DNA of 64,000 nucleotides. Origin: Armatimonadota bacterium. GTDB taxonomy: Bacteria > Armatimonadota > UBA5829 > DTJY01. The DNA lies in the NCBI GenBank assembly GCA_025358205.1, contig JANYKG010000082.1:551-64550 (forward strand). Direction: 5' to 3'. Each line of letters starts with the position of its first letter. The first letter of the stretch is position 1. Position numbers and translations under genes: made by a program. The notes beneath the pieces are model-generated. The model saw nothing but the letters and a program-made list of their open reading frames with translations. It was not told where the DNA came from and did no database searches. Shown one piece after another: positions 19,985-51,230 of this stretch.

Positions 19985-20013
19985 TTGCGCGTCAGGTTTC
20001 ACCATGCTATAAT
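19985..20013 (+). promoter_or_regulatory. sigma70-like promoter TTGCGC-17 nt-TATAAT upstream of pilB
   Basis: -35 at 19985-19990 and a perfect -10 TATAAT at 20008-20013, about 57 nt upstream of the pilB ATG. Confidence 0.45.
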
Positions 20014-20069
20014 GCTCTGGTTGAGTGCCAGATAATTGGACAGCCGTGGTTCGGGAGGCCGTTAAGGAT

Positions 20070-21860
20070 ATGGGAACAGCAAGAAGAGATATAGGCGATC
20101 TGCTCATCGAGGCGCAAGTGATTACGCTGGAGCATCTTACCGAAGCGAAGGAAGTGCAGAAGAGCGCGCCTGGTGATTTGGGTCAGATTATACTGGACTT
20201 GGGGTTTGCGAACTCGAAACAGGTTATGCAGGCGCGCGCGCGTCTGATGAATATACAGTTTGTTGATCTTGCCACTCAGAAGCTGGACCCTGCGGCGTTG
20301 GCTGCGGTACCGGAGCATGTGGTGAGACGTCACTGTGTCATCCCGGTGTTTAAGAACGGCAACCGCCTGATGGTGGCCATGAGCGACACACAGAACATCA
20401 AGGCCATGGACGACCTTAGAGTCGTAACTCGTGGTATGCAGGTAGTTCCCGCCCTCGCTCTTCCTGACGCGATAATCGAAGCCATAGAGCGGCATTACAA
20501 GGGCGGCGACGGCGACGGCGCCTCTGCTGCCACTTCAGAAAGCGGTCTGCCTGTACCACCGAACGTAAACACACTGGAGAATTCGATTGGCGGCGGGCTG
20601 GCAGGCGTAAAGGATGCCATCGAGTCGTATAAATCGCGTGACATTGGCGATGAAGAAGACCCGGACGCGGTGGCGCAGATATCCGAGCAGGCTCCAATTA
20701 TCCGTGTGGCCAACACTATTATTCAGCAGGCGGTTCAGGTGGGCGCCAGTGATATCCACGTGGAACCGGACAGGCGGCACGTGCGAGTGAGATACCGCGT
20801 TGACGGTGTGTTGCACGAAGAAATGACCATCCCTAAGTATATTCAGGCGCCGCTAATCTCCAGGTTCAAGATCATGGCTGAGATGAACATCGCCGAACGG
20901 CGCGTACCACAGGACGGACGCATCCCGGTTCGCAAAGACGGCAAGGACTATGACCTTCGCGTGAGCTGCCTTCCTACGATCTGGGGCGAGAAGATTGTAT
21001 GCAGAATCCTGGACAAGAGCAGCGTACTTCTGGGTCTGAACAAGCTGGGTTTCAACAACGAAAACCTGGCCAAACTGGAAGAGATCATCACCCAGCCTAA
21101 CGGTATGTTCCTATGCACAGGCCCTACCGGTTCCGGCAAGACCACCACACAGTACGCCGTACTTCACAAGATTAACTCCGTAGATAGAAACATCATCACT
21201 GTTGAAGACCCGGTTGAGTATCAGCTTTCAGGTATCTCTCAGGTTCACGTGAACGTGAAAGCCGGATTGACGTTCGGCGGCGCACTTAGGTCGTTTCTGC
21301 GCCAGGACCCGGATATCATCATGGTCGGAGAAATGAGAGACTTGGAGACCGCCGAGATCGCGGTTGAAGCGTCTCTGACCGGTCACCTTGTTCTCTCAAC
21401 TCTGCATACCAACAACGCTCCTTCCGCCGTTATCCGAATGGTTGATATGGGAGTGGAGCCTTATCTTATATCCGCGACCGTTCACGGCGTACTGGCGCAG
21501 AGGCTGGCGCGAAAGATTTGCGCTCAATGCGGAGAGGACTACCAGACACATGCGAGCGATTTGAGGGTGCTGGGATACGAACCCAAGGACAAGGATGAGA
21601 TGGTCACCCTGCGCAGAGGGCGGGGCTGCGAGGTCTGCCGCCATACCGGGTTCAAGGGCAGAACCGGTATCCACGAGTTGATGACCATGAACGATGAAAT
21701 CGCGGAACTTACCGTCCGTCGCGCGCCGCTGGCAGACATCCGAGAGGCAGCGAAGGCGAACGGTATGCATGACCTGCGAGACGATGGCCTTGAGAAGGTC
21801 ATGAGCGGAGTCACCACGATCGAAGAGGTCAAGAAGGTTGTATTCACCGCCGGTCACTAG
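20070..21860 (+). CDS. pilB: type IV pilus assembly ATPase PilB (GspE family)
   Basis: N-terminal GSPII_E_N-like domain, Walker A CTGPTGSGKTTT, Asp/His boxes and a tetracysteine motif (CAQC...CEVC). The stop TAG 21858-21860 lies inside the CTAG terminus of repeat copy C. Confidence 0.9.
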   Translation: MGTARRDIGDLLIEAQVITLEHLTEAKEVQKSAPGDLGQIILDLGFANSKQVMQARARLMNIQFVDLATQKLDPAALAAVPEHVVRRHCVIPVFKNGNRLMVAMSDTQNIKAMDDLRVVTRGMQVVPALALPDAIIEAIERHYKGGDGDGASAATSESGLPVPPNVNTLENSIGGGLAGVKDAIESYKSRDIGDEEDPDAVAQISEQAPIIRVANTIIQQAVQVGASDIHVEPDRRHVRVRYRVDGVLHEEMTIPKYIQAPLISRFKIMAEMNIAERRVPQDGRIPVRKDGKDYDLRVSCLPTIWGEKIVCRILDKSSVLLGLNKLGFNNENLAKLEEIITQPNGMFLCTGPTGSGKTTTQYAVLHKINSVDRNIITVEDPVEYQLSGISQVHVNVKAGLTFGGALRSFLRQDPDIIMVGEMRDLETAEIAVEASLTGHLVLSTLHTNNAPSAVIRMVDMGVEPYLISATVHGVLAQRLARKICAQCGEDYQTHASDLRVLGYEPKDKDEMVTLRRGRGCEVCRHTGFKGRTGIHELMTMNDEIAELTVRRAPLADIREAAKANGMHDLRDDGLEKVMSGVTTIEEVKKVVFTAGH

Positions 21861-21936
21861 CCCGCATTATTCATAAAAAGCATGAATAATGCTCAGAAGG
21901 TTGCGGATTATGCGGAACATGCATAATCCGCGCTAA
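21857..21936 (+). repeat. double-hairpin intergenic repeat, copy C
   Basis: Sequence CTAGCCCGCATTATTCATAAAAAGCATGAATAATGC-TCAGAAGG-TTGCGGATTATGCGGAACATGCATAATCCGCGCTAA. It begins at the pilB stop codon. Confidence 0.7.
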
Positions 21937-21984
21937 TTGCCGGTGCGGAGAAAAATGCCGCGGCACTGTACACGGAGGCATGAG

Positions 21985-23157
21985 TTGCAGGAAAGTAACA
22001 TAACGACACAGATGTCATCGAGGGCCAATGGCCGGGGTACATCTGTCGAAGATATTCACATAGATGATTTGCTCCGCCTGATCGTGGAGCGCGGCGCGTC
22101 CGACCTGCATCTGGCGGTGGGTTTGCCGCCGATCCTGCGCACGGACGGCCAACTGGTGCAGACCGCGTATGCATTCCTGACGCCTCAGGATACTCAGCGG
22201 CTGATGTACGACATTCTGACCGATGAGCAGGTGCAGCGGTTCGAGTCGGCATTCGAACTGGACTTTTCCTATTCCATTGAGAAGCTGTCAAGATTTCGCG
22301 TGAATATTTTCAAAGACAAAGGCACAGTTGCGGCCGCGTTCAGGGTCATCCCCCAGAGAATTCCGACAATCCGCGAACTTGGGCTTCCACTCGTCCTTGA
22401 GGATCTGACCCGAAAGCCCAGAGGACTCATTCTAGTCACCGGTCCTACCGGATCAGGAAAGTCTACCACCCTTGCCGCGATGCTGAATCTGATTAACACC
22501 GAGCGAAACGTTCATATCATCACCATCGAGGACCCGATTGAGTACCTGCACACCCACCGAAGCAGCGTTATCAATCAGCGCGAACTGGGATCAGACACTA
22601 AGTCGTTCTCGAATGCGCTCAGGTCATCGCTGCGCGAAGACCCGGATGTGATTCTCGTTGGTGAAATGCGCGACCTGGATACTATCTCCACCGCCATTAC
22701 GTGCGCTGAAACGGGTCACCTGGTGCTGGCTACGTTGCACACGAACAACGCGCCTCAGACGGTGGACCGTATGGTAGACGTTTTTCCGTCCGATCAGCAG
22801 GAGCAGATACGCTTCATGTTGTCCAACAACCTGGAAGCGGTGGTTTGTCAGCAACTGCTTCCGAGAGCGGGTATGCCGGGCCGAGTGTGCGCCATGGAGA
22901 TCATGATGGCGACACCGGCAATACGTAACCTGATTCGGGAAAGCAAGGCCCACCAGCTTACGTCTGTGATACAGACCAGCGCCAACGTGGGCATGCAGAC
23001 GATGGATCAATCGCTCAGGGATCTGTACCAGAAGGGTCTTATTTCCTACGACGAGGCGCTCACCCGGTGTATGAACCCGGATGAGTTCAAGACAATGGTA
23101 TCTACTACCACCACGCGCGGCGGACGACCGCAGGCAGCGCCGGGCGGCTCTCAGTAG
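21985..23157 (+). CDS. pilT: type IV pilus retraction ATPase PilT
   Basis: Walker A GPTGSGKSTT and PilT-type motifs are present. TTG 21985 is proposed as start because GGAGG lies 6 nt upstream. The alternative ATG at 22012 has no RBS. Confidence 0.85.
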   Translation: MQESNITTQMSSRANGRGTSVEDIHIDDLLRLIVERGASDLHLAVGLPPILRTDGQLVQTAYAFLTPQDTQRLMYDILTDEQVQRFESAFELDFSYSIEKLSRFRVNIFKDKGTVAAAFRVIPQRIPTIRELGLPLVLEDLTRKPRGLILVTGPTGSGKSTTLAAMLNLINTERNVHIITIEDPIEYLHTHRSSVINQRELGSDTKSFSNALRSSLREDPDVILVGEMRDLDTISTAITCAETGHLVLATLHTNNAPQTVDRMVDVFPSDQQEQIRFMLSNNLEAVVCQQLLPRAGMPGRVCAMEIMMATPAIRNLIRESKAHQLTSVIQTSANVGMQTMDQSLRDLYQKGLISYDEALTRCMNPDEFKTMVSTTTTRGGRPQAAPGGSQ

Positions 23158-23160
23158 GTT

Positions 23161-23239
23161 TGGACCGCATTATTCATGAACAGCATGAATAATGCTCAGA
23201 AGGCCGCAGATTATGCGGGACATGCATAATCCGCGCTAG
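23161..23239 (+). repeat. double-hairpin intergenic repeat, copy D
   Basis: Sequence GACCGCATTATTCATGAACAGCATGAATAATGC-TCAGAAGG-CCGCAGATTATGCGGGACATGCATAATCCGCGCTAG. It starts 4 nt after the pilT stop. Confidence 0.7.
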
Positions 23240-23278
23240 GACCGGATGGAGCATTTGGCTCCAAGGGAGTGATGTAAG

Positions 23279-24514
23279 ATGGCAACTTTTGCATATACAG
23301 TCAAAGACGCAGCGGGAACGATGAGGAAAGGCACCTCGGAAGGCGAGAACGAAGCCGTTGTGGTTCGTCGCCTGCAAGAGCAGGGGATGACGATCGTCAA
23401 CATCAAGCCGGGCAAAGCGGCCAAGGCCAAGTCCGGCGGCGGTGGGTTTGGCAGCGTCAAACTTGTTGACCTTTCCATTTTCTGTCGGCAGTTCTCTACC
23501 ATGGTTGACGCGGGTGTATCACTGGTGCGGTGTCTTACCGTTCTTAGCGAACAGTCAACCAGCCCCAAATTGCGACGAATCATCACCGAGATCGAGCAGG
23601 AAGTTCAGAGCGGACAGACGCTCTCGAAGGCGATGGCGAGGTATCCGGGCGTCTTCAACAGCCTGTTCATCGGTCTGGTCAAAGCAGGTGAGGTCGGCGG
23701 CGCGTTGGAGGAAAGCCTGCAGCGGTTGTCCGGATTCCTTGAGAAGGACCTGCAGCTCAGACGCAAAGTCAAAGGCGCCATGACGTATCCTACAATCGTT
23801 CTCGTAGTTGCGGTGACCATCGTCATAGGTCTGGTTACTTTCATAGTTCCGCAGTTTATGACCCTTTTCACCGACCTAGGCATGAAGCAAACGGACATGC
23901 CCAGCATGACTCGGTCGCTGATGCAATTCAGTAATTTCCTCACTACCAAGTGGTGGATATGCTTGCTCGTCGTCATTTCGTTTGTGGTTGGCATCAAGAT
24001 GTTTGGGAATACTAAAGTAGGACGCAGAGTTCTTGACCGCGTCAAACTAAAAGCGCCGGTCTTTGGTCCATTGAACCACAAAGTGTGCCTGGCCAGGTTC
24101 TCCCGGACCCTCGCCACATTGCTGTCGAGCGGTGTACCCATTCTTTCGGCCATGGAGACGGTGGCAGGCACGGTGGCCAATGAGATTCTTGGTGACGCGA
24201 TTTTGAACGCGCGGACCAGAATCCGTGAAGGTGACCGGATTGGTGAACCGCTGCAGAAGAGCAAGCTGTTCCCCCCGATGGTAGTGCAGATGATCAGCAT
24301 CGGCGAGGAATCCGGTTCGCTGGACAACATGCTTATGAAGGTGGCTGACTTCTACGAGGACGAGGTGGATGCGGCGCTGGAAAGCCTGACGTCCGCTATT
24401 GAACCTATCATGATCGTTGTTCTGGGTAGCGCTGTAGGATTCATCGTAATCGCTATGTTCAGCCCGCTTCTGGCGGTCATCTCTAACCTGAGTTCCGGCG
24501 GCGGAACCAACTAG
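23279..24514 (+). CDS. pilC: type IV pilus inner-membrane platform protein PilC (GspF family)
   Basis: Two T2SSF-like repeats with transmembrane segments. RBS AGGGAG. The stop TAG 24512-24514 lies inside the CTAG of copy E. Confidence 0.9.
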   Translation: MATFAYTVKDAAGTMRKGTSEGENEAVVVRRLQEQGMTIVNIKPGKAAKAKSGGGGFGSVKLVDLSIFCRQFSTMVDAGVSLVRCLTVLSEQSTSPKLRRIITEIEQEVQSGQTLSKAMARYPGVFNSLFIGLVKAGEVGGALEESLQRLSGFLEKDLQLRRKVKGAMTYPTIVLVVAVTIVIGLVTFIVPQFMTLFTDLGMKQTDMPSMTRSLMQFSNFLTTKWWICLLVVISFVVGIKMFGNTKVGRRVLDRVKLKAPVFGPLNHKVCLARFSRTLATLLSSGVPILSAMETVAGTVANEILGDAILNARTRIREGDRIGEPLQKSKLFPPMVVQMISIGEESGSLDNMLMKVADFYEDEVDAALESLTSAIEPIMIVVLGSAVGFIVIAMFSPLLAVISNLSSGGGTN

Positions 24515-24591
24515 CCCGCATTATTCACGAAGAACGTGAATAATGCTCAGAAAGGCCCTGCAATATGCCGGACGTGCATAATGCAGGCTAG
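24511..24591 (+). repeat. double-hairpin intergenic repeat, copy E (CTAG at both ends)
   Basis: Sequence CTAGCCCGCATTATTCACGAAGAACGTGAATAATGC-TCAGAAAGG-CCCTGCAATATGCCGGACGTGCATAATGCAGGCTAG. Confidence 0.7.
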
Positions 24592-24614
24592 CCCGGAAAG
24601 TATAAGAGTAGATC

Positions 24615-25463: not shown

Positions 25464-25493
25464 ACCGTTCGGCTCATCCAGGAGGGACTCAAA

Positions 25494-26423: not shown

Positions 26424-26446
26424 TAGCCGATGTTTAGTCGGAAATC

Positions 26447-26492
26447 GGGATAACCGCGTGCAAGCAGGCAGGCGGTTATCTTGCATTTCGTG
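26447..26492 (+). terminator. terminator-like hairpin after the DUF1559 pilin gene
   Basis: Stem GGGATAACCGC (26447-26457) / GCGGTTATC (26472-26480) with a 14-nt loop, followed by TTGCATTTCG. The U-tract is weak, so it may only be partial. Confidence 0.4.
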
Positions 26493-26663
26493 GGTACAGC
26501 AAGGAACAATTGGCGTCGGCATGAAGTCGAACCTAGTGTGGGGGGCTGCAGACCCCGATGATGGGCTGCAAGCCGTGGCGAATCGGTGTTGATGCCAAAG
26601 GACACAGTGCGTCTAATGAACCAGACCATACAATCATCAAGAATGAAGCGGGTGATAAAGCAT

Positions 26664-28505
26664 ATGCCAGTGATCCGAAGCCTGCGCGATAGAACCGGCA
26701 CGTCACTGATTGAGGTGCTGATAACGCTGGTGGTATTTCTCACCGGTATGGTATACGTTGTCCGCATGTTCCCAGGCGGTTTTGTCAGCCTGAGGCATGA
26801 TGAGAACGTGACAGCGGCTAACCGTCTTGCCCAATCTGAGCTTGAGCGGCTGCAGGGCAGGGCGATCAACCTGCCAACAGGAATCCTGCCTTGGGGTTGG
26901 GACGGCACGGCGTATAATGTGCTTCCGTTGACCGACCCGGAGAACATGGACGACCAGGACACCAAAGGTCTGAGCATGCCGGCGAACTTCGACATGTACT
27001 ATAACACCGACGTGAACAAGTTCCGCCGCGTGCTGGGTGAGTACACGCGCATTCCATCCCCGATCACCACGAACGGTAATGTTGGCTCCATATACGTATT
27101 GCAGTACAGCCCGGTGATGGCTACCGATGTCACCTTCGCGAGTAACGACAATCCCGTACTGGTTGCGGGTGGCGCGCTAAGGCGGAGATGGGTCGCCTCC
27201 GGTCAGGCAGTGGCTTCCAGACTCAGGAGTTTTGGTGACTATGCCATTGATTATGATGAAGCAAAGATTTATCTGCGGCCCTCCACTTCCGCGAATCCCA
27301 GAAGATTCCTGATTAACTATTCCTACTGGGCGGGTAGCGGAACCAGTATGACTCTGACGCCGGTGATAGGAGTCCCTATCATTGTTGGTCCGGCAATCAC
27401 GTCAGATGTCAGCCGCGGATATGTGAAGATTGATATCCCTGCTCCTACAGGAGGTCTGATCAAGGCGGCAACCGGGTTTGACAGCATAGACCGTGCGAGT
27501 GATGTGCTCTCCAGACAGTTCGAGCAGTTGGCTGTTGGCACGGCATGGAGCACTGACGATCCGTATGAGTTTAAGATGATTGATCCGTACCGCGGAGTGG
27601 TGGCATTCAATCCTAGCGGATATTCGTATCAGGAATACACCGCGCGCGGCAGGCAGCCTCTGGTCGCGAACATCACCTATACAGTTCTGGACTGGCATAT
27701 TATCCGCGAAGAGCGCAAGTTGCCGTCCGTGTTGAACAGCGCGGCAGACCAGGACGTGAAGCTCACACTTCGCTACATCAAGGAGAGCGGTGAGACTGAG
27801 GAGTACGGTGGCGGAATGTACCAGGGACTGGCTCCTAACTACGGCTTGCCGTTTGACGTGATAGCGGTTGATGTGGAAACCGGGCTTTGGTACACGAATG
27901 CTGCTGGGTCAGTTGTTCCAGGCACAACACGCCCGGCGATGATGGTGGATTACAAGGGTGGAGTGATTAGATTCGACCCGGGATTTGTGGCGATTCACGC
28001 CAATGATTCAACGAAAGTCAGTCCGTTTGCCGGGAAGTCGTTCCGCATATTCTACCGTGCGGAAGGTGATTGGGCTGTGCAGACCTACAAAGCCTATGAG
28101 AGCTACCAGCGCAGCTACAACAATGGCATTAGCGGCTTGGATCAGCGGCAGTATTTCATGAATGGCAGTCTTCTCTACGTGGCTCAGTGCAACGCGGGCG
28201 GCACGGTGACCGTTGATTTTGCTTATACAGTCGGCAACAACCCACAGGAGTTATTCGCATCCGGCCAGGTTTATCAGATAAACGACGGCAGTGATAGCAG
28301 TATCCCTCCGTTCTGCGCGGACTTGACCTCAAGCTTGAGAAGCACCTACGGAGCTGGAGCCTTGATAAACGTCACCAGGGTCACGAAGGTCAATGGAGTA
28401 TCGCTTGGTGTAAGAGTGATATGGAGGGAATCCGGACGAGGATTCAGCGCCGGACGCTGGCGGAAGATCAAGCTTGAGACTTATCTTACACGATCAGATA
28501 GCTAG
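26664..28505 (+). CDS. PilV-like giant minor pilin (~613 aa)
   Basis: Class-III leader MPVIRSLRDRTG followed by TSLIEVLITLVVFLTGM, with Glu at +5. ATG 26664 has a GGGTGA RBS. The C-terminal ~550 aa are uncharacterised. Alternative upstream in-frame starts exist at 26586-26643. Confidence 0.7.
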   Translation: MPVIRSLRDRTGTSLIEVLITLVVFLTGMVYVVRMFPGGFVSLRHDENVTAANRLAQSELERLQGRAINLPTGILPWGWDGTAYNVLPLTDPENMDDQDTKGLSMPANFDMYYNTDVNKFRRVLGEYTRIPSPITTNGNVGSIYVLQYSPVMATDVTFASNDNPVLVAGGALRRRWVASGQAVASRLRSFGDYAIDYDEAKIYLRPSTSANPRRFLINYSYWAGSGTSMTLTPVIGVPIIVGPAITSDVSRGYVKIDIPAPTGGLIKAATGFDSIDRASDVLSRQFEQLAVGTAWSTDDPYEFKMIDPYRGVVAFNPSGYSYQEYTARGRQPLVANITYTVLDWHIIREERKLPSVLNSAADQDVKLTLRYIKESGETEEYGGGMYQGLAPNYGLPFDVIAVDVETGLWYTNAAGSVVPGTTRPAMMVDYKGGVIRFDPGFVAIHANDSTKVSPFAGKSFRIFYRAEGDWAVQTYKAYESYQRSYNNGISGLDQRQYFMNGSLLYVAQCNAGGTVTVDFAYTVGNNPQELFASGQVYQINDGSDSSIPPFCADLTSSLRSTYGAGALINVTRVTKVNGVSLGVRVIWRESGRGFSAGRWRKIKLETYLTRSDS

Positions 28506-28558: not shown

Positions 28559-28578
28559 AACAGGGAAGTGATGCAGGT

Positions 28579-40900: not shown

Positions 40901-43900
40901 ATGGACGATGATCCGGATTCGGTGATTGATGCCCCGGGGACGACCGGAGGCAAGAACGGCTATTCATGCTTCTATGCGGTATGCGAGTATACGCTGGATG
41001 GTTCATCTTCCGGCAAAGCGCAGACTCCGGGGTCCATGTTCAATATCACGGCGAGAGAGATACCCAATTCGCCCAACGCCAGCAGCTTGGACATCCCCGT
41101 GCCGCACGCTCTGACCGGCGCAACTCCTGATCTGAATCCGGCCCAGGAGTTCGCGATCAACAATCCGATAGGCGTGCTGACGTACAATGCGCCGTACACC
41201 AGCGTCGCCCAGAGCTCGCCTGTTGACTCGATCGGCATGGATCCTGCTAACCGACTGACGACGAAGCGCGATCTGGCCGATGCGATGGTGAACGGTAACT
41301 TGGTTGCGCCTCCGGTAATTTGGGGTGGATACACGCCTCATAATAGGCTTTCGGAAACCCGGACGATCGCCATCGCGGACCGGAGTCTGCTGTCTGTGAG
41401 CGGGCGCAGAATCAGCAAGTTCCGGGCGGAACGTCATGATATGAGATGGACGGGCGCTATCCCGCAGGTTATTAACGAGCTGCCGTGGGAGCGCAATCCG
41501 TCCAATACTGCTGCGAATATGCCAAACTCCAGTGAGGATTACCCGGACATTGACCTGCGGCAGATTAAAGTGCGCCTGCTTTCCAACGGGACTGATCCGT
41601 CCCAGAGCGCTGTGGACCTTCGTAAAGGGATAACGACCGCTTTTCCCGCAGCCGGAGCCCCTTGGAATATGGTTGATCCGGTCGGCTTGTCCGCCCTGAA
41701 CCCGGTGAGCTTTGCGGTGCAAGTTCCACAGTTCCAGCCGCCGAACCTGCCGTGGTCGGGTAACCCATCAGGAACACGGGCTGACACCGGCTATACCAGC
41801 TATGTTTATGCATATATAGACTCCAACAACAACGGCATGATGGACAGGCCCGCAGGGCTTGGCATCGGGCAGCTCATAAGTTCCGCGGTTACAGGCACCA
41901 GGGCGGAGGCGTTCCGCATGCTTGAGGTGCAGGTACATGTGCCCGCGGACTACAGGGCGCAGATAGAAAATCAGCGCGTGAACATAGGCGAGGTGCCACA
42001 GGGGTTTGGCTACACGGCGAAAAGCGGTGTTCCATGGGTGTTTGCGCCGAATCTGGTGCCTGATCCGATGTATGGCGTGCTTGCGCCAGCCGGATTTGGC
42101 GAGTGGTTCAAGCCGCTGACCATCCGCAACACAGGCAATGTGAACCTTGTGAATGTTGGAATGCTGAGAACGGACATGGTGAGCGACACGGTTCAGCAGC
42201 CGGTCATAGATGGTACCGGTGCGGTGATTCCCGGCTCCGGATTCTATATTCCAGCACAATCTCCCTCTGCCAATCCATGCCTGGTTTCTACGGTTGATGA
42301 CAGCGGTTACCTGAATGGTGCAGGGTTTATGACCAGTGTACCCCCGGCGATGCTCTCAGCGTTAAGACCGCCATCACGGACGTTCCACAAGGCGAGGGTA
42401 GGGGAGTCTGCCCCGGAATTGAGACTGCCGGACTATACGTCTTGGGCGCCTGCGATTCCGCAGGTTCCGCAGGTTCCCGCGATAAGCGTGGCGGTGCCGT
42501 TGGGAACGCCCACGGGCACGTACTACGGGAAGGTTCAGCTTTCCGAAAAAGGTAATGCCGTCAGCAATCCGGTGGACGTGGTGGTTACGTGCAATGAGTC
42601 ACGGATTACGGGCGGCAACACGCTCCCTGTGCCGAATCTGACGCATCTGGACAATCCAAGTACGCCGGGAATGACCGGCGTGAGCGGCACCCCTGCGGCC
42701 TTCCGAAACCCGGCAACCGGAAACGTGCTGTTCTTCTGGTCAAGCTCCAGGTATCCGGATGTCACGATAAACAGCACGGCGCAACCGACCAGCTCTGATC
42801 CGGCATACCTGTACTTCAGCAAGCTTGAAGCGCAGACCAATGGTGAGTTCGGGCTATCAACGGCTGCTCCGGCCCAGTGGTGGGCGCCGACGACGACGAC
42901 ATCGGTGTTTCCGAAACCATCGAGAATCAATGATTTCTTCCCATCGGCGACAACTGCGGACCCGACCTGGGGTGCGGTTGGGAACATCATACCGGGCAGT
43001 GTGAAGTTCGGCAGCCCCACGGTGGCGGTGGATAAGGTCAACAAGAAGTCATACCTGCTCTTTACGGGGCAGGCCGGCAAGACGGACCCGAGATACAAAA
43101 CGGAAGCGAACTACACGACCGGCGCTCGAAATACCCAGGAGTTCCGCGCGTACTACACGGAGATCAACGGCGAAACGGTTGACGAGGGCAATGTGTACTC
43201 CACATCGCCGAACAATACTACGGAGCAGATTCACGGCGACTGGGCGACACCGAAGTTCGGTGTGCGCGGCGGTATAATGATTCGCGCCGCAGGAGACACC
43301 CCGGAGCTTTGGAACTTCTGGTACGGCGGCAGTAGCGGCAAGTGGCGGATATACTACAACGTCAAAGCGAACCCGTCCACGCCTCCCAGCCCTACCAATC
43401 AATGGACGAACGAAGCGCTTTTGCCGATACCCAAGGGGTTGAGTTCAGTGTCAGAGCCGTCGCCGGTGTTCCATTACTTCATAGATAAGACGACAGGCGA
43501 GTTCACCGAGACCGGCAACGAGTTCATGGTTACGTATTCCGGCATGTCCGTGTTCCACAAGAACAGCGATATCTACATGAGTAGATACATATCGCAGATG
43601 CCCACGACGGGCATCAGACAGGGAAATTCCAAGCCTGTTGACCTGGCGCTGATGCCTCAGCGTGCGAACCTGATACCAGAGGTGAATGACCCGGCGACCT
43701 CCGGGACGCCTCTGCTGGGTGAGAAGTTGACGCGTGATCCGGCTACCAGCGTGTGGTACTCCAAAGATGTTGACTGGCTGGCTGATGATGTCAGTGGTGT
43801 GGTGACCGTTGCAAACCCAAGAGATTTCGCGGTCTTTGTAAGACTTGATCCGACGGACCCGGCATCGGTCTATCAGCTTAACGTGGGCCAGACGGACCGC

Positions 43901-44794
43901 GACGCGTCAACCGGGGCGATAGTCTACAACTACGGTGGAGGAACGGCGGTTGAGAACACGCTGAGGACCCTATTCCGCGCGGTAGTGATCAACCCTGCAG
44001 ACGGCACGGTAAAGTTCATGAAAGCGCCGAACGGTAAGGCTCTTGTGGTTGCGAGGTATTTCCCCAAGGCGTACCGGCTGACTACGGACGGCGTGGCTGA
44101 CTCTAACCCTTGCGCGGTGATGGACGACGACGTGAATCCCAGGTATAGCAGCACGAATACCACCAATCTGCCGTTCTTTATGCCGAATGGCAGTCCCGAG
44201 CCGGTGCCTACGGATCGCCTATGGGTGTTCTGGCGCAGACCGGCGATGGATAAGACCGGCACCGGCATATACTACAAGGCGCAACGTTACATGGTGCAGC
44301 TCAACTCTCAGATGGGGCTGGACGTGAAGGCGTCGGGAGCCTTCACACCGTCGGTGGCATCAGTGATGGGTGTGGATCCAGTTTCTGGTACGAGCGCTAC
44401 TCTGAAGTTTCCGGTGGAGATAGACTGGGTGAAGAACAGACTGTATTTCGCTAGCGCGGATGGCAGGGACAAGATTCTGCACGGCACGGACGCGAACGGC
44501 AACAATGTGTATATTTCGTATCCTAAGCATGTGAAAGTAACTTATACTGATTCCAAGCAGAATGTTGTGACCGATGAAGACCACTACGTCCAATATGCCG
44601 ACGAGGATATCAGTCAGGCCGGCAAGACGTTTGGCAACCTTACGAGTCTGATGGTGAACGAAGGCCAGGTGAATGCGTTCAAGGACCCGTTCTCAAATAG
44701 ACTGTGGGTTTTCTGGACCAGCACCCGGTCCGGCAATTCCGATGTGTACTATGAGACTATAAGTCCCAGAATCATCGGCAAAGAATATAGATAA
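37997..44794 (+). CDS. giant secreted PQQ-like beta-propeller / beta-sandwich-module protein (2265 aa)
   Basis: ATG 37997 has GGAGG 11 nt upstream. The signal peptide is MKTRIAACALLALLICALGSSALGQ. PQQ-like blades occur (GQVYVLDADTGAHVWN, GHIYAINPDGTPKWVY, GTLYTVDGASG). A ~150-aa module (TWTF...LVVADxMKL) is duplicated near the N-terminus. Confidence 0.75.
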   Translation: MKTRIAACALLALLICALGSSALGQDQWPMLRHDNARTGLAVGGALSTFRPAPTWVFPAPETSTYTVDNGDAAFSKTGTWNDTPLNGVAPYLVEGAVPYLWTPTGASATATAEWTFTFNGGAYTMRGTSAKFMVFVWVPSPGAGETPQHCEDAHYTVELTNGATGVTTTIGHYTLDQTSGGGWQNLPNSPSLLVQKTDTVVVKLSNVTERKDDTGNLVVSQVLADAVMLKTDTGMVFASPAASTTLPLVISASTEFASVARGGNFGNANIGAVYGIGAEVNSGIVASAVDDRGMMKWRYPAGNNDWIAGGISSSPTLTTALGSEKVVAAGVDGQVYVLDADTGAHVWNGPGYFDENMTLSGSWNPYTGAGVRGADSQTAQSVKVPAAATATATWTFSPITPGTYDAYAWIPPSGSEMFVQDARYTDLKSTDPTAKAKVYQGGGGFWALVCKGFKSTGNTTIKLTNETEGDASNLVVADEMKLVPADVQSFDFSSPVVDGSGYIYIGSAGSAGRVLKLKSGQSDPVWTYPSTSDAPIGSIHASPAIGPDGTIYVGSADGHIYAINPDGTPKWVYPNPSGTPAALPEISSTTAVTDLSGKTYVYFSTGAASSGGSSGDEGKVYAIQDNGQDAVALQWTYPSSGQLGAFVYSSPLIMELASGNGKPQVVAGSTNGTLYTVDGASGIDNQVPQRMSVALNGLINSSPAGTYVTFPTYADRNVVTLPLPVRTTAAPMAFVGSGSRIYGVDLTLPLAAPATWVPKDWWWDLLGNVISSPAVTKNRIYAGDTAGYTWAFSTGLAGGGGQEGWNTELGPMPETSGSDHTAGGRDAKPEVDVFVKSDWDVFRRDYLEPAEHSDGNGTSKDWFRSSEIRKHARDHGATRPGTYQMEWGEDMVIVVWNLIDPNRSNPNAPNTWKRRFDSSDGTSHPAPGWTHDYRGRVEISIKGHAPGAASASEEKITLSDRQIDNFTDMDDDPDSVIDAPGTTGGKNGYSCFYAVCEYTLDGSSSGKAQTPGSMFNITAREIPNSPNASSLDIPVPHALTGATPDLNPAQEFAINNPIGVLTYNAPYTSVAQSSPVDSIGMDPANRLTTKRDLADAMVNGNLVAPPVIWGGYTPHNRLSETRTIAIADRSLLSVSGRRISKFRAERHDMRWTGAIPQVINELPWERNPSNTAANMPNSSEDYPDIDLRQIKVRLLSNGTDPSQSAVDLRKGITTAFPAAGAPWNMVDPVGLSALNPVSFAVQVPQFQPPNLPWSGNPSGTRADTGYTSYVYAYIDSNNNGMMDRPAGLGIGQLISSAVTGTRAEAFRMLEVQVHVPADYRAQIENQRVNIGEVPQGFGYTAKSGVPWVFAPNLVPDPMYGVLAPAGFGEWFKPLTIRNTGNVNLVNVGMLRTDMVSDTVQQPVIDGTGAVIPGSGFYIPAQSPSANPCLVSTVDDSGYLNGAGFMTSVPPAMLSALRPPSRTFHKARVGESAPELRLPDYTSWAPAIPQVPQVPAISVAVPLGTPTGTYYGKVQLSEKGNAVSNPVDVVVTCNESRITGGNTLPVPNLTHLDNPSTPGMTGVSGTPAAFRNPATGNVLFFWSSSRYPDVTINSTAQPTSSDPAYLYFSKLEAQTNGEFGLSTAAPAQWWAPTTTTSVFPKPSRINDFFPSATTADPTWGAVGNIIPGSVKFGSPTVAVDKVNKKSYLLFTGQAGKTDPRYKTEANYTTGARNTQEFRAYYTEINGETVDEGNVYSTSPNNTTEQIHGDWATPKFGVRGGIMIRAAGDTPELWNFWYGGSSGKWRIYYNVKANPSTPPSPTNQWTNEALLPIPKGLSSVSEPSPVFHYFIDKTTGEFTETGNEFMVTYSGMSVFHKNSDIYMSRYISQMPTTGIRQGNSKPVDLALMPQRANLIPEVNDPATSGTPLLGEKLTRDPATSVWYSKDVDWLADDVSGVVTVANPRDFAVFVRLDPTDPASVYQLNVGQTDRDASTGAIVYNYGGGTAVENTLRTLFRAVVINPADGTVKFMKAPNGKALVVARYFPKAYRLTTDGVADSNPCAVMDDDVNPRYSSTNTTNLPFFMPNGSPEPVPTDRLWVFWRRPAMDKTGTGIYYKAQRYMVQLNSQMGLDVKASGAFTPSVASVMGVDPVSGTSATLKFPVEIDWVKNRLYFASADGRDKILHGTDANGNNVYISYPKHVKVTYTDSKQNVVTDEDHYVQYADEDISQAGKTFGNLTSLMVNEGQVNAFKDPFSNRLWVFWTSTRSGNSDVYYETISPRIIGKEYR

Positions 44795-44901: not shown

Positions 44902-44930
44902 TTGACAAACAGTTGAAGAAGTGATAACAT
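44902..44930 (+). promoter_or_regulatory. sigma70-like promoter TTGACA-17 nt-TAACAT upstream of pilM
   Basis: -35 at 44902-44907 and -10 at 44925-44930, about 85 nt upstream of the pilM ATG. Confidence 0.5.
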
Positions 44931-45015: not shown

Positions 45016-46485
45016 ATGGGTTCCAAAGGCAAGATAGTCGGCGCACCAACAGTGGGCGTGAACATCGGCTCCAGCCTCATCAAAGTGGTGGAGGCAAAGC
45101 CCGGCAAAGGCGGTATTAACATTACCGCGCTTGGGATAGCTCCGACACCGCCGGGGACAATCGAGAATGAGGTCATAATTGACCCTCAGACCTTAGGTCA
45201 GGCTGTGCGCACTCTGCTCAAGGAGAGCGGCATCACATCCAAACGGTGCGTTTCCTCAGTCGCCGGTCAGTCCACAGTGGTCGTAAGGATCATTGAAGTG
45301 CCCAAAATGACCAAGAAGGAACTTGGGGAGACCATGAAGTGGGAAGTGGAGCGGCATGTGCCCTTCGCTGCCAACGAAGTGGTGATGGACTTCCAGCCGA
45401 TAGACAGGCCGATTATGGGCGGAGACGACCAGAACATGGAAGTGTTGCTGGCCGTGGCTCAGCAGGAAGTCATCAACAAACATGTGGAAACTATACTCGC
45501 CGCGGGATTGGACCCGGTTGTGATTGATGTAGAGCCGCTCGCGATTTGCAGATCGCTGGTTGACGCGGCGAAGAACGGCGAGATGGAGCAGACGATTGCG
45601 ATTGTGAATGTGGGCGCGGGCGTTACGGAACTGGGCATATATCAGTCCGGTCTGCTGGCGTTCCCACGCACACTGCCGATAGCCGGAGACGGCATCACCC
45701 GGGCGCTTAGTGACACACTGCAGATATCCGTAGAGCAGGCGGAACGGCTGAAGCGGGAGAAGGCGGTAGTGCTTCTTGACCGTTCAGCGGCGCTGAACCC
45801 GCACATGGGTTTTGGCGGTCCCGAACCGGTGGCTGATCAGTCTGCCCCGGTAGCATCTGCTCCTTCGAATGCCGATGATGATTTGGGATTCATCCCAGGC
45901 TTGGGCTTCGGGTTTGGCGCGGATGAGACTCAGGCTGCACCGGCGGAAGCCCCTGCGGCGGACCTGCCCGATTTTGATGTTGACCTGGGCGGCGGAATGA
46001 CCGGTATGCCGTTCATGGATTTCGACTTGAACGAGCCTGCAGCCGGCGCCCCTCAAGCAGACATACCACAAGCGGCCCCAATCACCTTTGATGGAGCATC
46101 CGGACTGCCTGCCAACGTGGACGGCGGACCGTCTCCTTCAGGCGTAGACGACTCTGTGCTGGCGGATTTCACACAAGAGCAGATATACGATGCCATTGCT
46201 CCTATGCTGAGCGATCTCATCATGGAGATTCGGCGATCCATCGAATACTATACCAGCAGATTCCAGTCCCAGCCGGACAAGATCATGCTTTGTGGCGGCA
46301 CAAGCAAGATTCGGGATCTGGACAAGCTGTTGCAGGCCGAACTGGGGATACCGGTGGTACTGGGTAATGCGATAAACAACGTTCCGGTGTTGTCGCGCAC
46401 GCTTTCTCAAGAATATGTTGAGGAAGTGGCGGCGCTCTTCCCTGTCGGCATAGGTTTGGCGATAAGGGACATGATAGGAGACTAG
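45016..46485 (+). CDS. pilM: type IV pilus assembly protein PilM with ~130-aa acidic low-complexity insertion
   Basis: Actin-like ATPase fold with the GINIGSSLIKVV N-terminus. RBS GGAG. An insertion rich in D/E/P/A/G occupies roughly residues 255-390. Confidence 0.85.
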   Translation: MGSKGKIVGAPTVGVNIGSSLIKVVEAKPGKGGINITALGIAPTPPGTIENEVIIDPQTLGQAVRTLLKESGITSKRCVSSVAGQSTVVVRIIEVPKMTKKELGETMKWEVERHVPFAANEVVMDFQPIDRPIMGGDDQNMEVLLAVAQQEVINKHVETILAAGLDPVVIDVEPLAICRSLVDAAKNGEMEQTIAIVNVGAGVTELGIYQSGLLAFPRTLPIAGDGITRALSDTLQISVEQAERLKREKAVVLLDRSAALNPHMGFGGPEPVADQSAPVASAPSNADDDLGFIPGLGFGFGADETQAAPAEAPAADLPDFDVDLGGGMTGMPFMDFDLNEPAAGAPQADIPQAAPITFDGASGLPANVDGGPSPSGVDDSVLADFTQEQIYDAIAPMLSDLIMEIRRSIEYYTSRFQSQPDKIMLCGGTSKIRDLDKLLQAELGIPVVLGNAINNVPVLSRTLSQEYVEEVAALFPVGIGLAIRDMIGD

Positions 46486-46493
46486 GCGTCATC

Positions 46494-47156: not shown

Positions 47157-47180
47157 TAACAGTGGAACTCTACTGCCGGC

Positions 47181-47864: not shown

Positions 47865-47888
47865 TAGCGGGCATAGAAAGATTTTCTG

Positions 47889-48653
47889 ATGGATAAGTTC
47901 AAAGCATGGATAGAGGATAAGAAGAACCTGCCGGTAGTGGCCACCATAGCGGGTGTGGTTGTGATCGGGGTTGTGGTAGTGATGCTGATGAGCTTTGGCG
48001 TCATAGGTGGTGGAGGCGGAGCGGACACGTCTACCGCGAGCGCACCTGGCATGGCCGCTGGTCCTGCTGCGGGAGCCGCTGGTCCTGTACCGCCAGGGCC
48101 GGGGCCTGCGGGAATGCCGATGGATGCCGGAGCCGTGGGGCCGACTGGCGCCGCGCCGGCCGCTGCCACTGCGCCAACTCCCGCTGGATCTGTTCTCCAG
48201 CCCATGTTGCCGTACCGAAAAGACCCGTTCCTGCCGTTTGCCGGTATGCCGTCCAGGAAGGACGTGCTGGCGATGGTGTTGCCGGCACTCCGGAGACCGC
48301 GGATTGCGCCCGCTCCTGTGATGCAGGTCGAGGCCACAGCGGCGGCAGCGGAAGTGCTTCCGCCTCAGCCGTTCCGCCGGATGGCGGGCGTGATGTGGAA
48401 CGGGCGGGTTTCAGCTATACTGGAAACCGCCGGTGAGACCGACATAGTCAGACCGCGCATGGAACTTAATAGAGGGAACTCGCGAGTGAGGGTAGAAAGT
48501 ATCACCCAGGACTCTATTGTACTGAAGACTCTAGACACTCGAACGCCGATGACGATTACTGTGGGGCTGGCGGGTTCCGTGACGGGAAATTCAGCTACTG
48601 GTACGCCGCAAGGACAAGGCGCACCCGACATGTACAACAACGCTCCATACTGA
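47889..48653 (+). CDS. pilP: PilP-like protein
   Basis: N-terminal transmembrane helix, a Pro/Ala-rich linker, and a C-terminal beta domain carrying the KDPFLPF motif as in PilP. Confidence 0.6.
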   Translation: MDKFKAWIEDKKNLPVVATIAGVVVIGVVVVMLMSFGVIGGGGGADTSTASAPGMAAGPAAGAAGPVPPGPGPAGMPMDAGAVGPTGAAPAAATAPTPAGSVLQPMLPYRKDPFLPFAGMPSRKDVLAMVLPALRRPRIAPAPVMQVEATAAAAEVLPPQPFRRMAGVMWNGRVSAILETAGETDIVRPRMELNRGNSRVRVESITQDSIVLKTLDTRTPMTITVGLAGSVTGNSATGTPQGQGAPDMYNNAPY

Positions 48654-48775
48654 TGAGCGCACAACGATCCGGGTCGGCAAAGAATAATCGTGACGGGTAA
48701 GAACATTTGGCCGACAGAAGTCGTCTTAGTATCGATAGTCTACAGATTTCACGATGGCGGAAGGAGAATTTTGCC

Positions 48776-49423
48776 ATGAGTAAGTTGCGAAGCATTCTGA
48801 TGGTAGTTCTGATTTTGATGGCCTTTGCTAGTGCAGTGTTTGCGCAAACGAGCACGAACGCAGAGGTCGAGAAGCGTGTATCGCTTCAGTTCAAGGATGT
48901 GCCTATCGGAAACGCGATAGCCATTCTCTTTGAGGGCATGAACTTCTCTGTGGAACCAGGGGTGCAGGGAACCGTGACAGTGAATTTGATCGATGTGGCG
49001 TTCCCCGAGGCTCTTCAAGCAGTACTGAAGGCGGCAAACCTTACGGCGCGCAAAGAGACCGGCGTATACTACATCGGCCCGAAGAAAGATTTGTCGCAGG
49101 ATATGTCACAGCAGCCGGTTGTAGAAGTTCCCGAAGTCGCGGTTGAAAGAACGAAGATACCCGAAAAATTGCTCATCGGATTTGCGGATGTGCAGGAAAT
49201 CGGCGGCTATCTTAACGCTCAGATCGGCAGTTCCCAGCGTAACCAGAGCGGTGGTATGATGGGCGGTGGTATGATGGGCGGCGGCATGGGCGGCGGCATG
49301 GGCGGCATGGGCATGGGCGGCATGGGCGGCGGCGGATATGGCGGCGGCATGGGCGGCGGCATGGGTGGCGGCATGGGTGGCGGCATGGGCGGCGGTATGG
49401 GCGGCGGTATGCCCCGCTGGTAG
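48776..49423 (+). CDS. secretin N-terminal (STN)-domain protein with C-terminal Gly-Met repeat tail
   Basis: ATG 48776 with AAGGAG RBS. The signal peptide is MSKLRSILMVVLILMAFASAVFAQ. The STN-like region VSLQFKDVPIGNAIAILFEGMNFSV...TVNLIDVAFPEALQAVL is followed by a (GGGM)n tail of about 55 aa. Confidence 0.6.
   Translation: MSKLRSILMVVLILMAFASAVFAQTSTNAEVEKRVSLQFKDVPIGNAIAILFEGMNFSVEPGVQGTVTVNLIDVAFPEALQAVLKAANLTARKETGVYYIGPKKDLSQDMSQQPVVEVPEVAVERTKIPEKLLIGFADVQEIGGYLNAQIGSSQRNQSGGMMGGGMMGGGMGGGMGGMGMGGMGGGGYGGGMGGGMGGGMGGGMGGGMGGGMPRW
49250..49411 (+). repeat. tandem 12-nt coding repeat (GGCGGCATGGGC-like) encoding (GGGM)n
   Basis: About 13 near-identical units lie directly head-to-tail inside the STN-domain gene. 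Confidence 0.7.
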
Positions 49424-49522
49424 TGATGTATATGGGCTGATCGGCCGACGCAGACCGCGAGTTCGGGCCTGAGCGACCGTTCGGGTTATGGATTTGAGTT
49501 GAAGTACCGGGGAGGAAATCGT

Positions 49523-51169
49523 ATGGAGTGGGTATATGGACGCCGACTGGGTCTACCTGGACTAGCAGTCCTAGCGTGTCTGGTTATTTTGGCGGCGCAG
49601 TGCAGCAGTGTATGTGCGCAAACCGCCAGTCCGCAGGGCGCGCAGGGCCTGATTTCGCTGGATGTGGTAGATGCGGATTTGTCACAGGTGGTACGCATAT
49701 TGATGTCTGAGAGCAAACAGAGCATCGTAATAGGCGATCCGGATGCCCGCGTGAAGAAGGTCACAGCGATGTTGAATAATGTGTCGCTGGAGAACGCGCT
49801 CCGGTACGTAGTTGAAAGCGTTGGTTGTTCTTGGCGTCACGAGTCTGACGGCGTCTATCTGATAGGCGCAAAGTCGCTCAATGATCGCGGTGTGGCAAAT
49901 GACGCGCAACCGGCATTGACTGACTCGACTGCTTCAGTGACTGCTCGGACAACCGGCGGTGTGAATGAGGCCAGTCACCGTGATACCAGAGTTGAGATGA
50001 TTAAGCTCTATAATGCAAGTCCTGCTGACATGATGTGGACGCTGGGTGTGTACAGTCTCGAAGATGCCCCGAAGATACAGACTCCACAACCGCGGAACGT
50101 AACGGTATACATGGAGAAGGCAGACGGCACCAGGGAATCGGTGTTTATGCCGGAGCAGACTGCGCCGATGACAGAGTCGCTGAAGTCCGCGCAGAATGGT
50201 GCACAGCGTACATCTCAATATGGTGCAGAAGCAGCGCAGAGGCCGCAGTACCAGCAGCAGTATCAGCAGCAGCAACCTCGGCCACCAGGTCCGACGCAGC
50301 CCGGTTCACCGAATCAGCAAGGTGGGTTGTTGCCCGCAGGCATTGACTACGTTTTGACCTATGACCTGGATAACTCGCTCATTGTGCGTGGTGATGACGA
50401 GGGCATCGAGGAACTGAAGACGATTATCAGCAAACTTGACATCGCGCCGAGACAGATTATGATAGAGGCGCGGTTCGTTTCGATAGCCACGACGGAACTA
50501 CAGAGCCTGGGCATAAACTGGTCAATGGAGCGGCTGAATAGCACCTTCTCCACCCAATTCAATCCTGCCGGAAACGTTATTATTGGTTATGCGAACGGCA
50601 ATGTGATAGCGAACATGCAGGCGCAGCTTGGCAAGTCACATGGCAAACTGATAAATGCACCGATTATCACCACCATGAACAACGTGCCGGCAAGCATTGG
50701 ATTCCAGACGACGGTTCCATATCTGACTTCATCTACGCAGTTCAACCAGAACGGCGGAGCTTCGACCGCATCGGCGACGATGTTTCTGCCGATCACGAGT
50801 CAGTTGTGGGTGTTGCCGAGAATAAACAACGCAGACAACTCCATCACTGTGAACATTATGCCGCAGATATCCGACATAGAGAAGTATGTGGATACGGCGA
50901 ATGGTTCCATACCCATAGTGAACACACAGTACATTCAGACTCAGCGGCGAGTAAGTAACGGAGAAACGATAGTGCTTGGTGGACTCATCCGCAAGGATGA
51001 TAACCTCAGTGAGGACAAGATTCCACTCATAGGCGATCTACCGATCATCGGCCGATTGTTCCAGAGTTCCAAGAAATCGGTGGATGACAAGGAACTACTG
51101 ATATTCCTGACCCCGACAATCGTGGCCGAAAAGCCGGTAGCCGGAGCGGGAGTTGGCGTAGCCCCGTAG
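49523..51169 (+). CDS. pilQ: type IV pilus secretin PilQ
   Basis: ATG 49523 has GGAGG 7 nt upstream. A signal peptide, an STN-like domain and the canonical secretin C-domain (GETIVLGGLIRKDDNLSEDKIPLIGDLPIIGRLF) are present. Confidence 0.9.
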   Translation: MEWVYGRRLGLPGLAVLACLVILAAQCSSVCAQTASPQGAQGLISLDVVDADLSQVVRILMSESKQSIVIGDPDARVKKVTAMLNNVSLENALRYVVESVGCSWRHESDGVYLIGAKSLNDRGVANDAQPALTDSTASVTARTTGGVNEASHRDTRVEMIKLYNASPADMMWTLGVYSLEDAPKIQTPQPRNVTVYMEKADGTRESVFMPEQTAPMTESLKSAQNGAQRTSQYGAEAAQRPQYQQQYQQQQPRPPGPTQPGSPNQQGGLLPAGIDYVLTYDLDNSLIVRGDDEGIEELKTIISKLDIAPRQIMIEARFVSIATTELQSLGINWSMERLNSTFSTQFNPAGNVIIGYANGNVIANMQAQLGKSHGKLINAPIITTMNNVPASIGFQTTVPYLTSSTQFNQNGGASTASATMFLPITSQLWVLPRINNADNSITVNIMPQISDIEKYVDTANGSIPIVNTQYIQTQRRVSNGETIVLGGLIRKDDNLSEDKIPLIGDLPIIGRLFQSSKKSVDDKELLIFLTPTIVAEKPVAGAGVGVAP

Positions 51170-51191
51170 GATTGAACGATTGATTTGATAT

Positions 51192-51230
51192 GCGCGTCCG
51201 AGAGTGACTGCACTTTCGGACGCGTTTTGC
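51192..51230 (+). terminator. rho-independent terminator after pilQ
   Basis: 10-bp GC-rich stem GCGCGTCCGA (51192-51201) / TCGGACGCG (51216-51224) followed by TTTTG. Confidence 0.6.

Follow-up and report, generated by a model that had tools for sequence, protein, structure and literature searches.

Gene content of the pil cluster

Analysis of a 64,000-nucleotide stretch of DNA from an Armatimonadota bacterium (contig JANYKG010000082.1, positions 551 to 64,550 of the forward strand; hereafter the window, in which all positions are counted) revealed a complete, contiguous and co-directional set of genes for type IVa pilus (T4aP)-type machinery, including the secretin, between positions 19985 and 51230. 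Such a cluster had been proposed in a preliminary description of this DNA, and all 16 open reading frames (ORFs) were found where it had placed them, on the + strand, together occupying 94.8% of the interval. A secretin is encoded in the cluster, and the host is therefore diderm, as that description had also supposed. The genes lie in the following order.

20070–21860, + strand: pilB, assembly ATPase, 596 aa, with an N-terminal MshEN domain
21937–23157, + strand: pilT, retraction ATPase, 406 aa
23279–24514, + strand: pilC, inner-membrane platform protein, 411 aa
24615–25463, + strand: pilD, prepilin peptidase/N-methyltransferase, 282 aa
25494–26423, + strand: prepilin, 309 aa, class III signal RSG↓MTLIE with a glutamate at position 5 (Glu5); candidate major pilin
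26643–28505, + strand: mp639, giant minor-pilin-like protein, ~620 aa, G↓TSLIE with Glu5
28576–30408, + strand: mp624, giant minor-pilin-like protein, ~610 aa, G↓FTLIE with Glu5
30467–33373, + strand: x968, giant pilin-like protein, 968 aa, N-terminal RG↓QTLV (G↓QTLVL), without Glu5
33548–37858, + strand: G1, 1436 aa, Sec signal, DUF4159-like N-terminal domain, PQQ-type propeller and C-terminal NHL-type propeller
37997–44794, + strand: G2, 2265 aa, Sec signal, Golvesin_C domain, PQQ-type propeller(s)
45016–46485, + strand: pilM, actin-like protein, 489 aa
46494–47156, + strand: pilN, 220 aa, N-terminal INLIP motif followed by a transmembrane (TM) helix
47181–47864, + strand: pilO, 227 aa, position and TM topology fitting PilO
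47889–48653, + strand: pilP, 254 aa, TM anchor, Pro/Ala-rich linker and C-terminal HR-type domain
48776–49423, + strand: free-standing STN (secretin N0-like) protein, Sec signal, Gly/Met-rich tail
49523–51169, + strand: pilQ, secretin, ~548 aa

The co-directionality of these genes is not special to the pil cluster, because the flanking housekeeping genes that were checked (alaS to aroE on the left; rplJ, rplL, rpoB, rpoC and rpsG on the right) also lie on the + strand, and the whole window has a positive GC skew.

Identification of the core machine and the alignment subcomplex

The start of pilB was placed at the ATG at 20070, which gives a 596-aa product 100% identical to the NCBI protein. 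Pfam searches with PilB revealed T2SSE (E 3e-136) and MshEN (E 6e-19), and the top NCBIfam model was TIGR02538, with 621 bits against an equivalog cut-off of 675 and 590 bits on GspE; PilB relatives in Armatimonadota share 63–89% identity with it. PilT matched the PilT/PilU family model TIGR01420 end to end, with 504 bits against a cut-off of 319. PilC contained T2SSF twice (E 1e-69) and aligned end to end with the Thermus and Myxococcus PilC models, and PilD matched A24_N_bact (E 1e-32) and Peptidase_A24 (E 3e-13), all PilC and PilD domain matches being above gathering scores. PilM matched PilM_2 in two stretches (E 3e-53) and TIGR01175 (205 bits; cut-off 133). PilQ matched Secretin (E 1e-40), with STN and Secretin_N sub-threshold, and its best NCBIfam model was TIGR02515 at 185 bits, under the subfamily cut-off of 284. 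The free-standing STN protein, which was kept in 17 related loci, scored 39.6 bits on STN (threshold 28.4), and it aligned with positions 2–125 of the PilQ model TIGR02515; it may provide a second N0-type docking site for PilP beside the STN domain of PilQ itself.

As single sequences, PilN, PilO and PilP gave nothing significant in Pfam, NCBIfam or PDB searches. Orthologues from related loci were therefore aligned, and the resulting family profiles were searched against PDB sequences. The PilN profile matched Myxococcus xanthus PilN (3jc8) with E 2e-16, and in the motif (I/V/L)NL(L/I/V)P the N, L and P were invariant in 27 sequences; INLLP-type motifs are the PilM-binding signature of PilN. 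For PilO, the top PDB match of the profile was M. xanthus PilO (E 0.006), and Pfam searches with the homologues gave T2SSM in 3/25 and PilO in 2/25. The PilP profile matched the PilP structures 4av2 (E 1.4e-4) and 2ivw (E 1.8e-4), as well as the homologous HR domain of OutC/GspC (E 0.004 and 0.024). The preliminary description had stated that its proposal would fall if profile searches failed to support the Pil assignments of the non-ATPase components; once family profiles are used, these assignments hold.

Several further features of the core proteins were observed. The N-terminus of PilB (20070–20600) matched NF053729, an MshE-related model for cyclic di-GMP binding, with 36.3 bits against a cut-off of 38; the MshEN and NF053729 matches suggest control of pilus assembly by cyclic di-GMP. 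Residues ~255–385 of PilM form a low-complexity insert of ~130 aa, rich in Ala, Pro, Gly and Asp, which splits the PilM_2 match; the insert is common to close relatives (489–509 aa), and the PilM of Fimbriimonadales (383–420 aa) is without it. The C-terminus of the STN protein is a long Gly/Met repeat (GGMMGGGMGGGMGG...), which we take to resemble the GGM tail of GroEL.

Conservation and composition of the locus

An alignment scan of GTDB species genomes with G1 yielded 75 loci, nearly all labelled Armatimonadota (Chthonomonadales, Fimbriimonadales, Armatimonadaceae, Capsulimonadaceae and Abditibacteriota). Mapping by tblastn, in which the mapped loci do not reach pilB, revealed the order PilC-PilD-pilin-mp639-mp624-x968-G1-(G2)-PilM-PilN-PilO, at 25–50% identity, in nearly all of the 75 loci with enough flanking sequence. 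A metagenome scan with a PilM alignment revealed G1-G2-PilM-N-O-P-STN-PilQ followed by rplJ-rplL in eight loci. On the other side, three relatives with 64–74% identity in PilB carried alaS-(hypothetical)-ruvX-mltG-HAD-aroE and then PilB-PilT-PilC-PilD-pilin-mp-mp-x968; one of these three syntenic relatives carries the PilB that is found on a 3.78-Mb chromosome. Dozens of independent Armatimonadota assemblies share the order together with its flanks (alaS-ruvX-mltG-HAD-aroE on the left and rplJ-rplL on the right), the identity of the relatives' proteins to those of the window ranges from 25 to 89%, and the named homologues are from Armatimonadota.

Comparison of base composition and codon usage revealed that the cluster resembles its surroundings. 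GC content is 0.556 in the cluster and 0.571 and 0.549 in the flanks, and GC at third codon positions (GC3) is 0.649 in the cluster versus 0.680. Relative synonymous codon usage (RSCU) of the cluster correlates with that of the flanks with r 0.962, compared with 0.884 between one flank and the other, and tetranucleotide usage matches the flanks as well. ORF lists and Pfam scans covering the flanks gave no sign of mobility genes, an integrase, a tRNA gene or a repeat boundary; these scans were not a dedicated search for tRNA genes or repeats.

The shared order and flanks in independent assemblies, together with the native composition, show that the locus is not an island and not a product of misassembly. 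An artefact joining separate contigs, the possibility that the preliminary description had itself raised against its proposal, was rejected on finding the same order in many independent assemblies, including the 3.78-Mb chromosome. As judged from these sequence comparisons, the whole arrangement including its flanks is ancestral and vertically inherited in Armatimonadota. Typical clusters were also present in three loci (L008, L025 and L063) labelled as Sedimentisphaerales, Propionibacteriaceae and Archangium gephyra metagenome-assembled genomes, which probably reflects mis-binning of contigs and not transfer. In the left flank, the longest-ORF calls of mltG (17488–18516) and the HAD hydrolase (18368–19108) overlap by 149 nt, and the HAD start is probably farther downstream, the relatives' proteins being 165–186 aa long.

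Pilin and giant pilin-like proteins

The candidate major pilin scored 32.7 bits on N_methyl (threshold 21.2), with N-terminal GspG and PilA matches, the former reaching E 1e-11 on the GspG model TIGR01710, and a prepilin gene occupies the same position in 50 related loci. The preliminary description had called it a DUF1559 prepilin, a label that did not hold: the Pfam match to this domain (SBP_bac_10, PF07596) covers 34 residues with E 0.027 and 15 bits, under the gathering score of 23.3, and one prepilin orthologue gave a faint match.

The three genes that follow encode class III signals in a row beside the pilin, the last member, x968, being without Glu5. These motifs are conserved: G↓(T/F)SL(I/V)E was kept in 48 loci for mp639, the mp624 motif in 53, and RG↓Q(T/S)L(I/V), also without Glu5, in 59 for x968. 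Minor pilins of model systems measure ~150–300 aa. For mp639, the match of the family profile to pilins in PDB was confined to the N-terminal helix (E 8e-4). mp624 matched N_methyl (E 1e-6) and, at its N-terminus, HpsC, ComGF and GspJ, and its family profile likewise matched pilins in PDB over the N-terminal helix only. The x968 family is large, with 634 representatives of 50%-identity clusters, and no Pfam match was found in any of 24 homologues and no match of the family profile among PDB sequences. An AlphaFold (AF2) model of x968 (mean predicted local distance difference test score, pLDDT, 81.7; predicted template modelling score, pTM, 0.86) contains a 57-residue N-terminal helix (residues 20–76) and a large, all-beta remainder. 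Foldseek searches of PDB with this model returned only weak matches to beta-sandwiches like those of carbohydrate-binding modules (CBM; E ≥ 0.03), and no GspK, PilX or ComZ.

The specific PilV-, PilW- and PilX-like labels given in the preliminary description found no profile or fold match to those families, and no significant Pfam or NCBIfam match of mp639, mp624 or x968 to PilX_N (PF14341), PilW or T2SSI/J/K was detected. By analogy with model systems, these labels describe position rather than demonstrated orthology. The lack of Glu5 is a hallmark of the tip pilins PilX and GspK (PMC7541494).

Secreted propeller proteins G1 and G2

G1 and G2, whose lengths are given after correction of the starts against NCBI gene calls, both begin with Sec-type (type I) signal peptides as read from the sequence, and Pfam propeller matches in both (PQQ_2; Beta-prop_ACSF4) bear out their earlier description as two giant beta-propeller genes. 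The N-terminal domain of G1 gave a short DUF4159 match in Pfam and its C-terminus NHL and PQQ_2 matches. An AF2 model of residues 25–1040 (pLDDT 85.7) contains an alpha/beta N-terminal domain followed by a propeller, which Foldseek matched to PQQ-dependent dehydrogenases and BamB (E 1e-9 to 1e-6). Golvesin_C, present in G2, is regarded as a carbohydrate-binding-like domain.

G1 occupies the same position across Armatimonadota, directly after the Glu5-less pilin-like gene, and G2 lies between G1 and pilM in most loci. In loci of the Chthonomonadales and Armatimonadaceae types (L011, L026, L033, L041, L061 and others), 4–7 kb separate the G1 match from the first G2 match, and in L025, L031, L047, L064 and L073 there is no G2 match. 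The content of the propeller module therefore differs between classes, as far as these sequence matches indicate. G1 and G2 resemble PilY1 only in gene position and in general make-up, which in PilY1 comprises a type I signal peptide and a beta-propeller (PMC7541494).

Promoters, hairpins and terminator

The regulatory features of the cluster are as follows.

19985–20013, + strand: candidate promoter of pilB, TTGCGC-17-TATAAT with TG extension (TGCTATAAT at 20005–20013)
26441–26489, + strand: hairpin after the pilin gene, 16-bp class, ΔG −32.3 kcal/mol, z −4.85, weak U-tract
44902–44930, + strand: promoter of pilM, TTGACA-17-TAACAT with TG extension, listed by the consensus scan
51192–51225, + strand: intrinsic terminator closing the cluster, 15-bp stem with 9 GC pairs, then TTTTGCTGTGTT, ΔG −27.4 kcal/mol, z −6.0

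Consensus alone proves little here, because the total count of promoter-like matches in the consensus scan was at chance level; the case for the pilB and pilM promoters rests on conservation, not on consensus match. The pilM promoter was conserved to the letter in the −35 and extended −10 elements of 15/15 closer relatives, with a variable spacer, and five more distant relatives carry TTGACA...TGnTA(C/G)GAT. Ahead of pilB, an extended −10 element TGnTATAAT precedes the start codon by ~55 nt, both in the window and in three relatives (L162–L164). Both promoters are thus backed by phylogenetic footprints in the sequences compared. The preliminary description was accurate for the pilM site, whose TTGACA-17-TAACAT was confirmed, and overstated that of pilB, termed near-consensus: its extended −10 is good, the hexamer being perfect, and its −35 has 3/6 matches, and the site was not listed by the consensus scan. 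No conserved promoter-like site or terminator was found before G1 or G2 in the window. Transcription probably proceeds in at least two units, from pilB and from pilM.

The end of the cluster carries a strong terminator, as had been noted. A promoter-like site (TTGACA-18-TATTCT with TG extension) at 51240 directly follows it, and an L10_leader RNA (Rfam RF00557; 47.7 bits, gathering score 44) at 51276–51439 precedes rplJ-rplL. The right boundary of the cluster is fixed by this succession of terminator, rplJ promoter-like site and L10 leader. Rfam searches revealed no riboswitch or leader within the cluster.

The hairpin at 26441–26489 lies in the usual place for an attenuator or terminator of a pilin gene, and may act as an attenuator or partial terminator that reduces transcription into the downstream genes. 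The pilT-pilC spacer (23158–23278) contains two strong hairpins (ΔG −46 kcal/mol, z −4.6) and a perfect inverted repeat, CATTATTCATG/CATGAATAATG, and could hold a regulatory or RNA-processing element. Outside the cluster, TTGACA-17-TAACAT with TG recurs at 52549–52577 before rpoB, with hexamers identical to those of the pilM promoter, and a strong terminator-like hairpin (52457–52497) precedes this site; TGnTAACAT may be a common −10 form in the organism.

Comparison with known systems

T4aP genes are usually dispersed over several loci (PMC6668835), as the preliminary description stated for most model T4aP organisms. A single self-contained locus is not unprecedented, since clusters of the Myxococcus type, in which one locus carries >15 T4aP genes, have been described in Cystobacterineae, Bdellovibrionales and Desulfuromonadales (PMC6060248). 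The main pil cluster of M. xanthus and Cystobacterineae shares with the window the adjacent pilB-pilT-pilC genes and the pilM-N-O-P-Q block (PMC6060248), and the PilN and PilO profiles from the relatives of the window matched the 3jc8 proteins of M. xanthus best. In myxobacteria, however, the clusters of minor pilins and PilY1 are apart from the main cluster, which carries pilS/pilR and pilGHI (PMC6060248), whereas the window has pilin-like and propeller genes between the pilin and pilM, has no regulator genes, and has an additional free STN protein.

In the FimU-PilV-PilW-PilX-PilY1 set of P. aeruginosa and M. xanthus, too, the last of several consecutive pilin-like genes encodes a protein without Glu5, and the gene after it encodes a Sec-exported beta-propeller protein (PMC7541494). 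The window differs in having three pilin-like genes, not four or five, with products of 610–968 aa each, in lacking PilX_N, PilW and PF05567 profile matches, and in having two propeller proteins (1436 and 2265 aa); G1 has a DUF4159-like domain at its N-terminus, and the searches revealed no vWA domain. The GspI-GspJ-GspK tip of the type II secretion system (T2SS) also has three members of which the last is without Glu5, and weak N-terminal matches link mp624 to GspJ and the pilin to GspG; on the other hand, the window contains PilT, PilM and PilN, GspL and GspC are absent, and the globular parts have no detectable similarity.

ComZ of Thermus thermophilus, a very large pilin-like protein with a big beta-rich domain, encoded among pilin genes and proposed to lie at the tip (PMC6561018), offers a likeness, and a precedent from another diderm lineage outside Proteobacteria. 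The uncharacterised prepilin-motif cassettes of Verrucomicrobia ('Verru_Chthon cassette' proteins A–D, TIGR02596–TIGR02600) gave weak matches, of the pilin to protein D (E 0.0016), mp639 to B (E 0.03) and mp624 to C (E 0.0016), with scores far under cut-offs and over N-termini only, which is not evidence of membership.

Interpretation of the locus

We regard the locus as a vertically inherited part of the chromosome that encodes the retractile, type IVa-like pilus machine of this Armatimonadota bacterium, and assign this reading, which is drawn from sequence comparison, a probability of roughly 0.8. It is supported because the core components reach or exceed curated thresholds and because PilT lies inside the cluster; moreover, cultured Armatimonadota carry fimbriae, as reported for F. 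ginsengisoli (PMC4072686). From the gene identities, anatomy, conservation and regulatory signals observed, we infer that a pilus is formed and retracted, and that it would serve in adhesion, twitching or DNA uptake. If the proteins act as their homologues do in characterised T4aP machines, PilD would cleave and methylate the prepilin and the pilin-like proteins, PilB on the PilC platform would polymerise the pilin and PilT would depolymerise it, and PilM, PilN, PilO and PilP would join the cytoplasmic motor to the outer-membrane PilQ secretin. The three giant pilin-like proteins would form a priming and tip complex with the Glu5-less x968 on top, and the Sec-exported G1 and G2, in the place of PilY1, would be a tip-associated adhesin or accessory module. 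For this tip role of the giant pilin-like proteins and G1/G2, which is suggested by gene position, signal peptides and the Glu5 pattern, we consider the chances about even.

Some observations weigh against this reading or parts of it. PilB lies under the PilB equivalog cut-off and scores nearly equally on GspE (621 vs 590 bits), the N-terminus of the prepilin also matches GspG, and PilO is the weakest identification, with weak support (E 0.006) from its profile. Beyond the N-terminal helix, the giant pilin-like proteins have no profile or fold link to PilV/W/X or GspI/J/K. PF05567, the PilY1 domain, was not among the Pfam matches of G1 or G2, the 50 best Foldseek matches of the G1 model include no PilY1, and downstream of G1 no G2 could be detected in some related loci.

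The cluster might instead encode a T2SS or a secretion pseudopilus, and not a surface pilus, in which case the 309-aa protein would be GspG-like, the giants a GspI/J/K-type tip, and G1 and G2 substrates or adaptors. Besides the GspG match of the pilin (TIGR01710, E 1e-11) and the 590 bits of PilB on GspE, the PilP-family profiles match the HR domain of GspC/OutC, some PilO homologues match T2SSM, and three minor pilin-like genes with the last lacking Glu5 fit GspI-GspJ-GspK better than FimU-PilV-PilW-PilX. In the literature, Denise et al. re-classed Armatimonadetes systems as T2SS (PMC6668835), and the F. ginsengisoli genome paper took Pul-like genes for a T2SS (PMC4072686). However, a PilT retraction ATPase scoring above its cut-off lies between pilB and pilC, PilM and PilN are encoded by separate genes, with the PilM-binding INLLP-type motif in PilN and no match to the GspL model, the best-scoring models are those of PilB and PilQ, and the cluster proteins include no GspC-type PDZ protein or GspC model match, so that we consider a secretion system improbable. 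Far less credible still is a self-contained, horizontally transferable pilus island, although the preliminary description held the locus to be transferable as a unit, all parts do lie in one locus, and single-locus type IV filament systems are in general transferred more often (PMC6668835). This claim is contradicted by native codon usage and by the phylum-wide synteny, distant relatives retaining alaS, ruvX, mltG and aroE on one side of the cluster and rplJ and rplL on the other; the cluster resembles its flanks in GC, GC3, RSCU and tetranucleotide usage, no mobility genes turned up in the ORF and Pfam scans, and identity to the relatives, nearly all Armatimonadota, is graded.

G1 and G2 could alternatively be unrelated proteins of the cell surface or periplasm, such as carbohydrate-binding or envelope proteins, that became fixed between two pil operons and form no part of the pilus. 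This would accord with the missing PilY1 domain, the Golvesin_C domain of G2, the separate conserved promoter before pilM, gaps of 138–221 bp that flank both genes, and the loci in which G2 was not detected. Yet G1 follows the Glu5-less gene in essentially every locus, across classes and at 25–50% identity, linkage so stable rarely persists without functional coupling, and neither G1 nor G2 is preceded by a conserved promoter-like site or terminator in the window; we therefore hold a chance association to be rather unlikely. Returning to a pilus machine, we put forward more tentatively, as a possibility with odds clearly below even, that the three giant pilin-like proteins with G1 and G2 form a new, very large pilus priming/tip assembly, or else a periplasm-spanning accessory structure with the free STN protein, either of which would replace the PilV/W/X-PilY1 module.

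Significance of the locus

Searches of the literature turned up no earlier account of this locus in Armatimonadota. Beyond what is known of T4aP clusters, it contains a block of pilin-like and propeller genes encoding ~5,900 residues, novel in sequence, conserved across Armatimonadota, and situated where minor pilins and PilY1 sit in model systems; it also contains a free STN protein beside PilQ, and its arrangement is fixed phylum-wide between aroE and the rplJ operon. Armatimonadota are a poorly studied diderm phylum, with cultured members that were named for fimbriae, and the cluster provides a clean reference anatomy for their pilus machine. It further indicates that a T4aP encoded wholly in one locus can be ancient and fixed by vertical descent, a counter-example to the link between single-locus organization and frequent transfer. 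The mp639, mp624 and x968 families and the two giant propeller families are candidates for a non-canonical pilus tip. If they do form a new large tip or accessory assembly, this would widen the range of what T4aP secretins are able to pass or dock, and it would point to a lineage-specific function, such as the capture of polysaccharides or other substrates via CBM-like and Golvesin-like domains.

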